From: Chloroflexota bacterium
GTDB taxonomy: Bacteria; Chloroflexota; Limnocylindria; Limnocylindrales; CSP1-4
DNA length: 64,000 nt
Assembly (NCBI GenBank): GCA_034436555.1
Contig: DAOTUU010000021.1
Coordinates: 36,415-100,414, forward strand
Reading direction: 5' to 3'
The notes beneath the pieces were generated by a model. That model worked only from the letters and a program-made list of their open reading frames with translations. It was not told where the DNA came from and did no database searches. A program made the translations under genes and the position numbers. Positions 52,609 to 60,538 of the stretch are shown in pieces (the first letter of the stretch is position 1; each line of letters starts with the position of its first letter).

Positions 52609-52685
52609 TGGCGGACCCGACCGGATTCGAACCGGCGATCTCCAGCGTGACAGGCTGGCATGTTGGGCCGCTACACCACGGGTCC
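52609..52685 (-). tRNA. tRNA-Asp (GTC), CCA encoded
   Basis: Reverse complement GGACCCGTGGTGTAGCGGCCCAACATGCCAGCCTGTCACGCTGGAGATCGCCGGTTCGAATCCGGTCGGGTCCGCCA folds as a cloverleaf, 77 nt. Confidence 0.97.
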
Positions 52686-53982: not shown

Positions 53983-55676
53983 CGGCACCGGAGCTGAGGT
54001 CGATCGCGGCGCCCGTCGTCGCGACCGAGGGAGACCGAGCGTTCGCGGACCTCATCGCGGACCACTTCGAGGCGCTCATGGAGCGCAGCCCGGCGGTCGC
54101 GACCTACCTGGGCATCCACGCCCACGACCACCGACTGGCGGACTTCTCGCGAGACGCGTTCCTCGCGGGCATGGACGCCGAGCGGCGCCACGAGTCAGCG
54201 CTGGAGGCCATCGACCCCGCCGGCCTCTCGCCGGCCACCGCGTTCGAGCGGGAGGTGGCCCTGTTCGTCGTGCGCCGCGCCCGCTTCGATGCGGAGGTCC
54301 ACCGCGCCTGGGAGCGCCGCGCACACGCCGCCGACGAGATCGGCGACTCGCTGTTCCTGCTGTTCGCCCGTGACTTCGCGCCGCTCGCGGAGCGCCTGGA
54401 GGCGATCACGGAGCGGCTCGTGGCGACCCCCGACGCGCTCCGGCGGGTCCGCGACCGACTCGGTCCCCGACCCGTCCGGCTGTGGCTCCAGCTCGAGATC
54501 GACGGCCTGCGCACGCTCCCCTCGTTCATCGAGTCGATCGTCGCGGCCGGACCGGAGGCATGGGGTGGCGACGACCCTCGCCAGGCTCGCCTGGCGCGCG
54601 CCGCGGCCGCCGCCCTGACCGCGATGCACGAGTACGCCGACTGGCTGCGCACGCAGCTGCCGCGCGCCGGCGACGAGTACGCCCTGGGCGGCGCGGACCT
54701 CGAGACCCTCATCCGGCTGCGTGCGCTCGACGGCCTCGACGGCGACGCGATCCTGGCCATCGGGCTGGAGCAGCTGGAGCTCCAGCACCTGGCCCGCGCG
54801 GAGGCGGCGCGCGAGATGGCGGGCTCACCGGACGAGGCGACCGCCGTGGACCGGGTGAAGGCAGACCACCCGGCGACCTTCGAGGCGGCCCTCGAGGGAT
54901 ATCGGGATGCGATGCACCGGGCGCGCGCGTTCGTGATCGCCCACGACCTGGCGACCATGCCATCGGACGAGGTGCTGGAGGTCATCCCGACCCCGGCCTA
55001 CCTGCGCGCCGTGATGCCCTTCGCGGCGTACTTCGCACCCGCCGCGTTCGACCGGCCGCGCCGCGGCACGTACATCGTCACGCCGTCCGTGGACGGCGAT
55101 CCGGGCGCCATGCGGGAGCACAACTGGGCGTCCATCAGCAACACCAGCATCCATGAGGCCTACCCGGGCCACCATCAGCAGCTGACCGCGGCGCTCGCCC
55201 GTCCCACGCTCTCGCGGCTGCTCCTGGATGCCCCCGAGTTCGTGGAGGGCTGGGGGATGTACTCGGAGCTGCTGCTCCGGGAGCACGGCTTCGACGCGAC
55301 GCCGGAACATCGCGTCGCGCTCGCCACGGACGCCATCTGGCGCGCGTGCCGGATCATCCTGGACATCCGACTCCATCGCGGCGAGATCGGCACGGCGGAG
55401 GCGATCGACTTCCTGGTGGAGCACACGGGCTTCGAGCGTCCGAACGCGACCGCGGAGGTGAACCGCTACACCTCCTCCCCGACCTATCAGCTGTCCTACC
55501 TCCTGGGCCGGGAGCTGATCCTGCGCCTGCGGGCCGACGAGCAGGCCCGCCTGGGCGACGCCTTCTCGCTGCGGCGGTTCCATGACGGGATGCTGTGGTC
55601 CGGCTGCCTGCCCGTGAGCTTCCATCGACGGCTGCTGGCGGGCGAGGGCGGCGGGCCGATCCTGCCGGAGGGCTGA
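53979..55676 (+). CDS. DUF885 family metallopeptidase-like protein
   Basis: P..ATYLG, HEAYPGHH, FVEGWGMYSE, R.CR...D..LH and PTYQLSY..G motifs; GTGA overlap with ltaE. Confidence 0.9.
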   Translation: MTAPELRSIAAPVVATEGDRAFADLIADHFEALMERSPAVATYLGIHAHDHRLADFSRDAFLAGMDAERRHESALEAIDPAGLSPATAFEREVALFVVRRARFDAEVHRAWERRAHAADEIGDSLFLLFARDFAPLAERLEAITERLVATPDALRRVRDRLGPRPVRLWLQLEIDGLRTLPSFIESIVAAGPEAWGGDDPRQARLARAAAAALTAMHEYADWLRTQLPRAGDEYALGGADLETLIRLRALDGLDGDAILAIGLEQLELQHLARAEAAREMAGSPDEATAVDRVKADHPATFEAALEGYRDAMHRARAFVIAHDLATMPSDEVLEVIPTPAYLRAVMPFAAYFAPAAFDRPRRGTYIVTPSVDGDPGAMREHNWASISNTSIHEAYPGHHQQLTAALARPTLSRLLLDAPEFVEGWGMYSELLLREHGFDATPEHRVALATDAIWRACRIILDIRLHRGEIGTAEAIDFLVEHTGFERPNATAEVNRYTSSPTYQLSYLLGRELILRLRADEQARLGDAFSLRRFHDGMLWSGCLPVSFHRRLLAGEGGGPILPEG

Positions 55677-56374
55677 TGCAGGTCATCCCGAGCATCGACC
55701 TGGTGCGCGGTCGCTCCCGCCTCGTGTGGTGGCCGGGCGCGTCCACCGGCTCGGGCACGCCCACCGACCGCCCCGAGCGCATCGCGAGCGCGTTCGTGGA
55801 GCTGGGCGCGCCGCTGATCCATCTCGTGGACATGGATGGACCCGGACAGGGACGGCCCGTGAACCTGGGGGAGATCGCGGCGGTCTCCCGAGCCGTGGGC
55901 GTGCCGCTCCAGCTGGCGGGCGGCGTGGACGGGCCGGAGCAGATCGACCTCGCCTTCGCCGCCGGTGCGACCCGGGTGGTGCTGCCGATGTGGCTGGCCG
56001 CGGAGGATCCCGGTCGCCTGGCGGCCTGCGTCCGACGGGCGGGCGACTGGCTCGCCGTGGGCCTGGACGCGCGCCCGGAGCGCCTCGCGGAGTATCCCTG
56101 GCCGCGCCCGGTGCGACCCACCCTGGAGGCCCTCATCGGCGAGCTGGCCAGGGCGGGCGTCGGCCGATTCGTGCTCAGCCACGCGGGCGCCGACCTGCCG
56201 CGCCTGCGCGCGCTCATCGCCGCCACGGATGCGGAGGTGCTGGTGGCGGGCGGCGTCACCTCGCCGGCGGTCATCGGCGAGCTGCGGGACGCGGGCGTCC
56301 ACGGCGTGATCCTGGGCGAGGTCCTGTTCACCGGCGCGATCGACCTGGCGGACGCGCTGGCGGCGGCAGCCTGA
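55676..56374 (+). CDS. Divergent HisA/HisF-like (beta/alpha)8 barrel protein
   Basis: MQVIPSIDL, IHLVDMDG, QLAGGV, GA.RVV, GLDAR, AGGV and GVILGE.LF motifs; TGATG overlap with DUF885. Confidence 0.75.
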   Translation: MQVIPSIDLVRGRSRLVWWPGASTGSGTPTDRPERIASAFVELGAPLIHLVDMDGPGQGRPVNLGEIAAVSRAVGVPLQLAGGVDGPEQIDLAFAAGATRVVLPMWLAAEDPGRLAACVRRAGDWLAVGLDARPERLAEYPWPRPVRPTLEALIGELARAGVGRFVLSHAGADLPRLRALIAATDAEVLVAGGVTSPAVIGELRDAGVHGVILGEVLFTGAIDLADALAAAA

Positions 56375-56414
56375 AAGATTTAGGAAAGTTAACCGGTGAA
56401 TCCGCCCGAACCGG

Positions 56415-56444
56415 TTGAGATCCCGTTCGAGGTTCGTGTATTCT
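56415..56444 (+). promoter_or_regulatory. Sigma70-like promoter of the ncRNA
   Basis: TTGAGA (56415-56420), 18-nt spacer, TATTCT (56439-56444), with an AT-rich upstream tract at 56375-56400. Confidence 0.65.
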
Positions 56445-56450
56445 CTCGTC

Positions 56451-56594
56451 AGTGCTGCTGGTCAGCATGACTGCCCCAGGCACAAGGTCATGGGTAGGTC
56501 GGGTTAGGGTAGCCGGTGCAGCCGGCGTTATAGATGCCCTTGTGACGCGGCAGAAGACCTGAGGCTCACGCCTCTGGCTTCACCGGGACAGTGC
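56451..56594 (+). ncRNA. Stand-alone structured ncRNA, 6S RNA-like candidate
   Basis: Lies between a promoter and a terminator with no credible ORF. The 5' gtgctg-ctggt pairs with 3' accgg-cagtgc; inner taggtc/gacctg, agggta/tgccct and gccgg/ccggc stems; side hairpins catgac/gtcatg and gaggc/gcctc. Confidence 0.65.
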
Positions 56595-56595
56595 A

Positions 56596-56629
56596 GGCGG
56601 CCCCGCTTCGGCGGGGCCGCCTCGTTTTC
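56596..56629 (+). terminator. Intrinsic terminator
   Basis: ggcggccccgc-ttcg-gcggggccgcc (11-bp stem, UUCG loop) followed by tcgttttct. Confidence 0.88.
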
Positions 56630-56839
56630 TGTGCGGGGCCGACGGGCGCCTGGTCGCCAGCCCTGGCGGGGCCGCCGGTCGGCCGTGGCCGTCGACCGGA
56701 CCGCAGGGCGCGCTGACGGTTCCCGGAGGTCCCGATACACTCCGCCGATCACGCCCGCTCCGCCCGTCGAGCGAGGCCCATCCGGAGCCAGACCCAAGAT
56801 GCGCCACCGTCGTCAGCCAGCCGTGCCGACACCCGACCG

Positions 56840-58924
56840 ATGAGGTGGCCCCGATCCCGGCGACGCCTGGCCCTGGGCGTCGGCGCGCTGCTGCTGATGG
56901 GCCTGCTGCTGCTCGCCTACGCGCTGCTCCACCTGTCGGTGCGGCGGGTCATCTGGGATGCCCTGTTCGGCGGCGACTGCACGATGTTCTGCGGCAGCCT
57001 GCGCGTGAGCGCGGAGATCGCCCAGGCGGTCAGCGCGACCTGGCTCATCGGCGTCGCCATCATCGCCGCCGTCCCGCTGGCGGGCGCGCTCGTGCGGACG
57101 GGCCTGGAGCGGATCGTCGCCGCCGGGCTCATCGCGTATGGGCTCATCGCCATCCCCGCCGCGATCGTGGGCTACGCCGGGGACCTCGTGGGCACCCACC
57201 TGCTGAAGCCGCCCGTGGGTCCGCTGCTGGCGAGCCTGCCATCGGTGCTGGCCATCGGCGTCTTCGTGGCGCGCGGCTGGCGACCGTCATGGCCGCGCGG
57301 GGAGACGGGCGTGCGCCTGACCCCCGCCATCGCGATCCTGCTCGCGCTCGTCGTCGCGGCGACCATCGTCCAGCTGGGCATCGCGGTCCACCGCCCCTTC
57401 ACCGGATTCGACGCCCTGGGCTACCACGCGCCGCTGGCGGTGCTGTTCTGGCATGACGGCGGCATCGCCTCGTTCCTGGACCGGTTCGCCGCCTCCGCCG
57501 TGCTCAACCATCCGGGCGGCACGGAGCTGTGGCAGGGTCTGCTGCTGCTCATCGGGGGCGAGCCGCTCGCGATGGGCGGCCAGCTGCCATTCGCGCTGCT
57601 GGGCGGGGCAGGCGTGGCGCTGTTCGGGCGGCGCCTGGGCCTGCGCAACGGGGCCGCCGTGCTGGCCGGCCTGTTGTTCCTGCTCGCGCCGATGGTCACG
57701 GAGCAGATGGGCCACCTCCGCAACGACGTGGTCGGCTCGTCTCTGGTCGTGGTCACCGCGGCGATCCTGGCCGACCGGACACCCGGGACACTCCCCTCGC
57801 GCCTGATCCTGGGATGCCTGGGCTTGGGCCTGATGATGGTCACCAAGCTGTCGCTGCTGCCCGCGGTCGGCGCGCTGAGCCTGGTCGTCCTGTGGCTGCT
57901 CATCCACGAGATCCGCTCCGGCCGGCCGATGGGTCCGGTCTGGAAGGCGTTCGGCATCGGCGTGGCCGTCGCGCTGCTCGCGGTCGCACCGTGGTGGATC
58001 CGCAACCTGCTGGATCACGGCAACCCGCTGTATCCGCTCAACTTCCCGATCGTGGGCGGCGGCGTGCCCTGGGCCAGCCCGCCCGACTCGCGCTACGTCC
58101 CATCGCCGCTGCTGTGGCCCATCTACCCGCTCATCGAGCCGTATGGCCCCGCCAACGGCTTCGGGGGCGCCTACGCGGTGGGCATCATCCCCGGCCTGGT
58201 CGCGGCGCTGTTCCTGGCGCGGCGCAGGCCGCTCGCGATGCTGGGGCTGATGCTGGTCATCACGATCCCCGCGTGGGTGCTCCTCGACCGCCGTGAGCCG
58301 CGGTTCCTGCTGGGCGTCGTCGGGCTCAGCTTCGCGCTCATCCCGTTCGCGCTCGTCGCGCTGCGCCGGCGCTGGCGGGGCTGGGCGGTCGGCTTCCTCG
58401 TGGCGGCGTCCGTGGTCACGGTGGCCGCGCAGTGGATGGTCACCACACCCCGCTATGCCGAGGAACGGATCGCGTTCTACGACCAGGCGTGGGGCGTGGA
58501 CCCGGTCGCGGACGCACTGCCGGAGACGGTCGGGATCCTCGTGGATGACCGGTGCGGCGGCCCCGAGGGTCGCCTCTATCCGTGGTTCGGCGCGGGCCAG
58601 AAGCGACGCGTGGCGCGGGTGGGGTGCAAGGGCACGAGCGCGGAGGACGTCCTGCGACTCATGCGCGAGGAGCGCCTGAGCCACGTGGCGCTGTTCGTCC
58701 CGGAGGCGGACGGCGCCGCGCGGATCGCCACGCTGTACCCGCCAGAGGCGTTCACCGAGGTCAGCCGGTCGATCCGCACCAGCGACAAGGGGACGCGCCT
58801 GCGGGTGCTGCTCCGATGGAACGAGGCGCCCGTCGACCCTGCGGACGATGATGGGTCGCCGGGGGCGGACGCGTCGCCGGGGGCGGACGCGTCGCCGGGG
58901 GCGGACATCCCGCCCGGCGACTGA
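56840..58924 (+). CDS. Polytopic membrane protein, GT-C/ArnT-like glycosyltransferase candidate
   Basis: Many TM segments, FDALGYH loop, ND in helix, PWWIRN and REPRF motifs; C-terminal GADASP repeated three times. Confidence 0.65.
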   Translation: MRWPRSRRRLALGVGALLLMGLLLLAYALLHLSVRRVIWDALFGGDCTMFCGSLRVSAEIAQAVSATWLIGVAIIAAVPLAGALVRTGLERIVAAGLIAYGLIAIPAAIVGYAGDLVGTHLLKPPVGPLLASLPSVLAIGVFVARGWRPSWPRGETGVRLTPAIAILLALVVAATIVQLGIAVHRPFTGFDALGYHAPLAVLFWHDGGIASFLDRFAASAVLNHPGGTELWQGLLLLIGGEPLAMGGQLPFALLGGAGVALFGRRLGLRNGAAVLAGLLFLLAPMVTEQMGHLRNDVVGSSLVVVTAAILADRTPGTLPSRLILGCLGLGLMMVTKLSLLPAVGALSLVVLWLLIHEIRSGRPMGPVWKAFGIGVAVALLAVAPWWIRNLLDHGNPLYPLNFPIVGGGVPWASPPDSRYVPSPLLWPIYPLIEPYGPANGFGGAYAVGIIPGLVAALFLARRRPLAMLGLMLVITIPAWVLLDRREPRFLLGVVGLSFALIPFALVALRRRWRGWAVGFLVAASVVTVAAQWMVTTPRYAEERIAFYDQAWGVDPVADALPETVGILVDDRCGGPEGRLYPWFGAGQKRRVARVGCKGTSAEDVLRLMREERLSHVALFVPEADGAARIATLYPPEAFTEVSRSIRTSDKGTRLRVLLRWNEAPVDPADDDGSPGADASPGADASPGADIPPGD

Positions 58925-60462: not shown

Positions 60463-60538
60463 GCGCCCGTAGCTCAGTGGATAGAGCGTCTGCCTCCGGA
60501 GCAGAAGGCCGTGAGTTCGAGTCTCGCCGGGCGCGCCA
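60463..60538 (+). tRNA. tRNA-Arg (CCG), CCA encoded; probable integration site
   Basis: GCGCCCGTAGCTCAGTGGATAGAGCGTCTGCCTCCGGAGCAGAAGGCCGTGAGTTCGAGTCTCGCCGGGCGCGCCA folds as a cloverleaf, 76 nt. Confidence 0.97.

Follow-up and report, generated by a model that had tools for sequence, protein, structure and literature searches.

A 465-bp intergenic gap in the window (the whole 64,000-nucleotide stretch of DNA analysed here) very probably contains the gene of an autonomous, structured RNA of an undescribed family, as judged from the sequence of the window and its relatives. The overall explanation that we favour on balance is that the gene is free-standing, occurs in a single copy and specifies a stable RNA of about 180 nt, which would belong to such a family and act in trans as a binding platform. 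For the mode of action taken by itself, the binding of a partner on such a platform is put forward tentatively.

The gap extends from the stop codon of a HisA-like gene (56372-56374) to the start of the next ORF (56840). G+C content over 56350-56600 was 0.57-0.65, as compared with 0.72-0.82 on either flank. Consensus scans of 55500-57500 returned a single sigma-70-type promoter match (TTGAGA-18-TATTCT, 56415-56444; 0.1 expected from shuffles) and a single terminator-like site (56595-56622; 0.4 expected), which comprises 12 pairs, 11 of them G-C, a UUCG loop and CGTTTTC directly after it. The AT-richer island, the good promoter and the strong terminator described in the first-pass annotation were recovered by these scans. 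Its transcription start near 56451 agrees with the position of the -10 element, from which the start is placed here as well, so that the position is a prediction. The length of about 145 nt given there holds for the RNA without the terminator (144 nt, 56451-56594); with the terminator the full transcript would comprise about 179 nt. The features of the locus are listed below with their positions in the window.

56377-56394, + strand: AT-rich conserved upstream element, GATTTAGGAAAGTTAACC; family consensus aGGTTAaGGAATTTtAACC; centre about 65 bp upstream of the predicted start.
56415-56444, + strand: sigma-70-type promoter; -35 TTGAGA at 56415-56420, spacer of 18 bp, -10 TATTCT at 56439-56444.
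56451-56629, + strand: predicted transcript of about 179 nt; start about 7 nt past the -10 element, end at the end of the terminator U-run.
56452-56468, + strand: H0, 5' hairpin, GUGCUG-CUGGU-CAGCAU.
56470-56477, + strand: P1, 5' strand of the closing helix, ACUG-C-CCC; partner 56585-56592; C74/A88 mismatch.
56479-56491, + strand: P2, 5' strand; partner 56534-56546.
56492-56511, + strand: internal loop, G-rich 5' side (20 nt), GGGUAGGUCGGGUUAGGGUA; family GGGUAGGUNGGGUYAGGGUA.
56512-56526, + strand: P4 hairpin, GCCGG-UGCAG-CCGGC.
56527-56533, + strand: internal loop, 3' side (7 nt), GUUAUAG; family GYGAUAG.
56534-56546, + strand: P2, 3' strand; partner 56479-56491.
56547-56552, + strand: junction J2/3, GCGGCA; continues into P3, whose first bases complete the nearly invariant GGCAGA.
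56553-56581, + strand: P3 hairpin, closed at its base by GAAG...CUUC; its sequence differs among family members, as does its length of 23-37 nt.
56582-56584, + strand: junction J3/1, ACC.
56585-56592, + strand: P1, 3' strand, GGG-A-CAGU; GGGACAG invariant in 115 sequences.
56595-56629, + strand: intrinsic terminator; 12-bp stem with UUCG loop at 56595-56622, followed by CGUUUUC.

Homologous sequences were searched with nhmmer, using 56375-56640 of the window as the query against 50 loci fetched via the HisA-like neighbour. The element was present in 37 of the 50 loci (E-values 1e-38 to 1e-15), and the HisA-like protein was only 53-74% identical among contigs carrying its closest relatives. The 13 loci in which nhmmer detected no element were on truncated contigs, in genomes from outside Limnocylindria or, in one case, in a complete-chromosome MAG. 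In the latter (L024; OY970306.1, 3001-6693) the HisA-like and cyclophilin genes are present, and the 2.2 kb downstream contain no copy of the RNA; either the RNA is encoded elsewhere in that genome, or it was lost in the lineage. Set A1 was made up of 35 full-length genome copies, which were found without a pattern search and have 59 invariant columns in common. Metagenomes were searched with the core pattern ATGGGNAGGTNGGGTNAGGGTAGNCGG, which matched at least 120 contigs from soils, sediments and fresh water; viral contigs gave no copy in the core pattern search. Set A2 contained 115 distinct sequences, of which 80 came from the pattern search that fixes 23 core positions. Because of this selection the invariance seen in A2 is partly one of construction, and the independent evidence is that of the 35 sequences in A1. 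In total the element was present, once in each, in 157 related loci in addition to the window, comprising 37 Limnocylindria-type genome contigs and 120 among the metagenome matches listed. In one genome scan and one metagenome scan (at least 120 contigs), the RNA has so far been seen in Limnocylindria-type Chloroflexota alone. A profile search of 838 kb located the RNA in 158 of 171 sources, with a single copy at each locus, and the sole copy in the window at 56471-56592. These comparisons establish the RNA as a conserved element.

The transcription signals accompany the RNA among the relatives. The promoter has the form TTGnnn-N17/18-TAnnnT in 109 of 116 copies, with a variable spacer sequence, and an A-tract (AAAaCCC) stands 5' of the -35 element in most copies, where the window has GAACCGG. 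The 18-nt upstream element aGGTTAaGGAATTTtAACC matched the window once (0 expected), and scanning with a position weight matrix gave 140 occurrences adjoining the RNA and 0 elsewhere in 838 kb. This element (56377-56394) may be either the site of a regulator or a distal UP-like element. In one clade it takes the form of a GGTTA/TAACC inverted repeat, which is not found in the other clades. Terminators occurred in 114 distinct sequences across the family, every one a strong hairpin (mean -30 kcal/mol); all copies have a GC hairpin of 11-14 bp, with differing sequences. The U-run is short: the window has 4 U, and the relatives often have a weaker one. Promoter and U-run are found on the + strand only, and many pairs of the helices described below are G-U, which would be A-C mismatches on the opposite strand. 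The RNA was assigned to the + strand on the basis of these frequent G-U pairs, the promoter and the U-run.

Alignments of the family consist of invariant blocks alternating with segments that are variable yet self-complementary. The fold deduced from covariation is well supported and comprises a 5' hairpin (H0), a three-way junction of 122 nt and the terminator hairpin. For H0, 109 of 109 copies fold into a hairpin with 4 or more base pairs, and 79 different sequences are represented among them (mean -6.2 kcal/mol, versus -2.3 kcal/mol when shuffled); compensatory variants such as GCUG/CAGC, GCCG/CGGC and GUCGC/GCGAC occur in the alignments. The seven pairs of P1 are paired in 100% of 115 sequences, the outer pair being G-C in 81, A-U in 22 and G-U in 12; P1 was also picked by RNAalifold on the 115-sequence core. 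Both sides have changed in 9 of the 13 pairs of P2. All five pairs of P4 are formed in 100% of the sequences, with U-A (70), C-G (41) and U-G (4) at the second pair. P3 occurs in 96 distinct sequences and folds into a single hairpin in 115 of 115 (-12.6 kcal/mol, versus -6.3 kcal/mol when shuffled); double changes were found in 6 of 6 inner pairs tested and in 3 of 4 pairs at its base. Over 35 tested pairs in the 115 sequences, standard pairing was observed in 88.8% of the cells, as opposed to 32-44% after sliding the 3' partners by 1-3 columns. Double changes were present in 20 of the 35 pairs, and 0 of 500 shuffles reached any of five measures, these controls being column slides and shuffles rather than phylogeny-aware tests of significance. 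The secondary structure is established by this covariation. In a mutual-information scan, no tertiary or pseudoknot pairs were detected beyond the helices and clade effects.

Folding of the window sequence alone gave z = -3.9 with the terminator and z = -1.67 without it. Since the single-sequence signal rests mostly on the terminator, the case for the structure depends on the relatives. The energy model assigned -52.4 kcal/mol to the three-way-junction fold and -53.9 kcal/mol to a non-conserved minimum free energy structure. The first-pass annotation had called the RNA highly structured and had proposed that covariation be examined; the relatives do share a conserved structure, although the fold differs from the one it described. 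The closing stem proposed there (about 56452-56462 with 56583-56594) is not conserved: its 5' segment belongs to the covarying H0, and the actual closing helix is 56470-56477/56585-56592. Likewise, a hairpin at 56466-56492 is found in the window only and clashes with P1 and P2; both this hairpin and the proposed closing stem belong to the minimum free energy structure of the window and were rejected for lack of conservation. A second hairpin at 56561-56574 is real and constitutes the tip of P3.

An alternative to P1 was considered, in which GGCAG (56549-56553) pairs with CUGCC (56471-56475). RNAalifold chose this helix on 35 sequences and P1 on the 115-sequence core. The helix was dropped in favour of P1, because it does not covary and has been lost through uncompensated breaks or deletions in 5 of 115 sequences (CUGAC in L075 and L082; GGGAAG, GGGGAG and GGGGGG in L026, L081 and L102), whereas P1 covaries. 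As an alternative conformer beside P1, the CUGCC/GGCAG helix is possible.

This alternative pairing bears on the question whether the RNA could be a base-pairing sRNA, in which an invariant unpaired stretch serves as the seed for mRNAs and the terminator hairpin as the handle for a chaperone. The seed would then be the G-rich loop, GGCAGA or, in the CUGCC/GGCAG fold, CACCGGGACAG. An sRNA of the Hfq type would be expected to combine a short conserved seed in single-stranded form and little constraint elsewhere with a long U tail at its terminator. The gene has the layout of an sRNA gene with its own promoter and terminator, its promoter with the gene-specific upstream element looks regulated, and the alternative pairing would free an invariant 3' segment. 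However, P1 is fully paired throughout the family, contains a covarying pair and tolerates a C-to-A change that breaks the alternative helix, and the G-rich loop is shut between two helices. Antisense regulators need only a short seed, and the approximately 40 unpaired positions of the 20/7 internal loop and the junctions, which are invariant across the class while the helices vary freely, far exceed this need. A base-pairing sRNA is accordingly regarded as improbable. The binding platform is favoured over an antisense RNA because so many unpaired positions are invariant while the helices tolerate any pairing sequence; riboswitch aptamers, ribozyme cores and protein-binding RNAs typically combine an invariant unpaired core with free helices.

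Of the 20 positions in the G-rich strand of the internal loop, no more than three vary in the whole family, all of them between G tracts; the remainder is invariant, and this holds as well for the 35 genome copies, for which no pattern search was used. From this composition (GGG-UA-GG-UN-GGG-UYA-GGG) the RNA might be read as a free-standing ligand sensor or catalytic RNA, i.e. a riboswitch-type RNA acting in trans or a ribozyme, whose G-tract loop forms a quadruplex-like structure or a compact pocket for a small molecule. The pattern of invariance is like that of an aptamer core, the location of the variable positions agrees with this reading, and by direct reading the sequence fits a G2+ (two-tier) quadruplex motif. 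EutX and Rli55 are examples of sRNAs that contain a B12 riboswitch and act in trans. On the other hand, a quadruplex was not chosen by ViennaRNA with quadruplex energies, and the linker bases A52, U55, U60, A62, U66 and A67 are invariant too, none of which a plain quadruplex needs. The terminator sequence changes freely, so that no conserved switchable expression platform is apparent, and no riboswitch or ribozyme model matched. A G-quadruplex in the G-tract loop is therefore treated as speculative, and the sensor or catalyst reading as a whole is considered unlikely. It overlaps with the favoured binding platform when the partner is a small ligand.

Coding capacity was evaluated across the copies. 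One frame is open across the invariant core, in which a 36-codon ORF starting with GTG (56452-56562) could specify a small protein. In 63 of 116 copies this frame has no start codon, and stop codons are scattered. Third codon positions were not more variable than the others (entropy 0.43 versus 0.52 and 0.52), the paired substitutions keep the helices while altering the amino acids, and hairpin lengths vary by non-multiples of 3. Thus the only frame through the core has neither a conserved start or stop nor a three-base periodicity, which bears out the earlier view that no credible ORF lies between promoter and terminator and establishes the RNA as non-coding; the probability of a small protein gene is taken to be minimal.

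The upstream neighbour was a same-strand gene of a cyclophilin-type peptidyl-prolyl isomerase in 112 of 129 loci, often with two such genes in tandem, and a HisA-like gene in 10 of 129. The window belongs to the latter type; it lacks the cyclophilin gene, and the HisA-like gene (55676-56374) abuts the promoter of the RNA. The upstream cyclophilin may reflect conserved gene order only. Downstream, the first ORF had the orientation of the RNA in 17 of 33 loci and the reverse orientation in the other 16, and the downstream gene was none of the tested neighbour genes of the window in 86 of 89 loci. The products encoded there are unrelated, including a PfkB kinase, an AlkZ-like glycosylase, a DEAD-box helicase, ClpB, an MFS transporter, acetyl-CoA synthetase (Acs), fumarase (FumC), a GT2 enzyme and an FAD oxidoreductase (DAO). 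In one locus (L035) the RNA itself is inverted with respect to its neighbours. No conserved neighbour gene pointing to a partner was found among the 129 upstream and 33 downstream loci. The varied downstream context and the conserved promoter and terminator establish the gene as autonomous.

These data also apply to a cis-regulatory function, by which the RNA would be the leader or riboswitch of ORF 56840-58924 and control it by attenuation at the terminator 56595-56622. The order in the window (promoter, structured RNA, terminator and same-strand ORF) resembles that of an attenuator, but 210 nt separate the terminator from the start of the ORF. A conserved anti-terminator or complement of the terminator was not seen in the family, since the core does not change from clade to clade, whereas the sequence of the terminator does. 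Because the downstream genes differ and about half of them are on the opposite strand, control of the downstream gene by a leader or riboswitch was in effect ruled out, and we rate it as highly improbable.

ORF 56840-58924 encodes a protein of 694 amino acids with hydrophobic stretches, no Pfam family and a short tandem peptide repeat at the C-terminus (GADASPGADASPGAD...); the gap between it and the terminator is G+C-rich and untranslated. At a larger scale, a conserved frame was recognized, in which tRNA-Asp(GTC) is followed at some distance by the HisA-like gene, the cyclophilin gene(s), the RNA, 0 to 5 kb of variable genes and tRNA-Arg(CCG). In the window the two tRNAs are at 52609-52685 (- strand) and 60463-60538 (+ strand), with the RNA at 56451-56629 (+ strand) between them, and the same frame occurs in L069, L086, L061, L087 and other loci. 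The downstream tRNA was in all 32 loci tRNA-Arg(CCG) on the same strand. It was within 400 nt of the end of the RNA core in 21 of 103 loci and is 3.9 kb away in the window. Since the distance between RNA and tRNA-Arg varies from 0 to 5 kb, gene insertions must have built up between both RNA genes. Co-transcription with the downstream tRNA-Arg was considered unlikely, as the tRNA has its own -10-like element, and an integration hot spot beside the RNA was rejected with 0 integrases among 10 downstream genes sampled.

According to the favoured explanation, the RNA would be transcribed from its own sigma-70-type promoter with the gene-specific upstream element and end at its own hairpin terminator. 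It would probably be abundant and stable, because the promoter is strong and conserved and hairpins are present at both ends; these two hairpins may protect it against exonucleases. The invariant nucleotides of the internal loop and the junctions could fold into a compact tertiary site for a conserved partner, which may be a protein or a small ligand, and the RNA would act in trans as a folded platform for its binding. A more far-reaching version, which we consider rather unlikely, is that of a new class of housekeeping ribonucleoprotein or a free-standing sensor, with the GGG-tract loop as a quadruplex-like or unprecedented pocket for a cofactor, a metabolite or a core protein. If true, none of the stable RNAs known from bacteria would be a counterpart of this functional RNA.

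In soils and lakes, Limnocylindria belong to the more abundant of the uncultured bacteria. The near-invariance of the RNA across a class, together with a dedicated promoter element, suggests that it is central to these cells, and riboswitches, ribozymes and protein-regulating RNAs are what structured RNAs with such a conservation pattern have earlier proved to be. The family is directly testable in vitro although the organisms are uncultured, since its secondary structure is well supported and over 100 natural variants are at hand.

Known RNA families were compared by means of Rfam 15 (4227 families), which was applied at gathering threshold to the window and 14 long loci, and permissively at E<=10 to 56300-56900 and at E<=5 to 11 homologous loci, among them those with the most divergent copies. 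At gathering threshold no family was assigned to the RNA in the window, and only tRNAs passed in the window and the 14 long loci. In the permissive scans no relevant family was obtained; weak matches to istR, RsmY and Xoo2 were driven by the terminator and discarded. A literature search on noncoding RNA of Limnocylindria and on strings of the core sequence yielded no description of this RNA. At the family level the RNA is new in that these comparisons detected no relative, and its action may prove analogous to a known one. The first-pass annotation had proposed an Rfam scan for 6S, raiA and other families, and none of them matched; of the two possibilities that it left, a divergent 6S RNA or an unannotated class, the new noncoding class is retained, and 6S RNA is not.

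The 6S reading assumes a mimic of the open promoter that sequesters the RNA polymerase holoenzyme, with the 20/7 loop as the central bubble of a divergent 6S RNA or an analogue of it. Similar to 6S RNA (SsrS; RF00013), the RNA is largely helical with a big, asymmetric internal loop between helices, its gene is free-standing and present in one copy per locus, and its predicted length of about 179 nt including the terminator is within the 6S range of 160-200 nt; plausibly both are trans-acting binders of a housekeeping partner. No 6S model matched, neither in the window at E<=10 nor in 11 relatives at E<=5. The fold backed by covariation is a three-way junction, as opposed to the 6S rod with closing stem, central bubble and terminal stem; P4, the helix distal to the loop, has just 5 bp, and the closing stem that would have suited a rod is not conserved. 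In 6S bubbles, shape is conserved rather than sequence, whereas the loop of the present RNA is invariant in sequence. An assignment to 6S RNA is for these reasons very unlikely.

Bacterial SRP (4.5S) RNA (RF00169) is also a small, conserved and independently transcribed RNA with a long hairpin arm containing conserved internal loops. The SRP hallmarks are absent, as had been noted in the first-pass annotation: no SRP model matched, the apical loop is a UGCAG pentaloop instead of a GNRA tetraloop, the 20/7 loop replaces the symmetric and asymmetric loops of SRP RNA, and the P1/P3 junction is additional. The likeness to 5S rRNA (RF00001) is one of architecture only, namely a three-way junction of about 120 nt in which the two ends of the RNA form the closing helix, plus a G-rich loop that recalls loop E; unlike 5S rRNA, the RNA gave no match at E<=10, lies outside an rRNA operon and differs in arm lengths and conserved sequences.

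With three-way-junction riboswitch aptamers and trans-acting riboswitch sRNAs, it shares an invariant core of junction and loop nucleotides, freely covarying helices and a terminator directly after them, a resemblance in pattern only. Unlike riboswitches, it is not followed by a conserved gene, it lacks an alternative anti-terminator pairing, and none of the riboswitch models matched it. Short stretches (AGGGnAnCCnGUGC...) which we take to be look-alikes of the cobalamin aptamer have no Rfam score in their support, and none of the look-alikes considered (cobalamin aptamer, 5S loop E and 4.5S) was backed by a model score. The features of an independent bacterial sRNA gene are present, i.e. an own promoter and an own intrinsic terminator, both predicted from the sequence and both conserved with the RNA.

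The raiA motif or ModT (RF03072; PMC11706538) differs in the details of its structure and its distribution. The raiA RNA comprises 8 paired regions and 2 pseudoknots and is found in Bacillota and Actinomycetota (PMC11706538), whereas the RNA described here gave no RF03072 match, has the simple layout of a three-way junction (about 122 nt) and comes from Limnocylindria-type Chloroflexota. Both are structured RNAs conserved throughout a phylum or class, with an own promoter and many invariant unpaired nucleotides, and in many species raiA has an intrinsic terminator as well. As a kind of object, the raiA motif is the best analogy for the RNA of the window.
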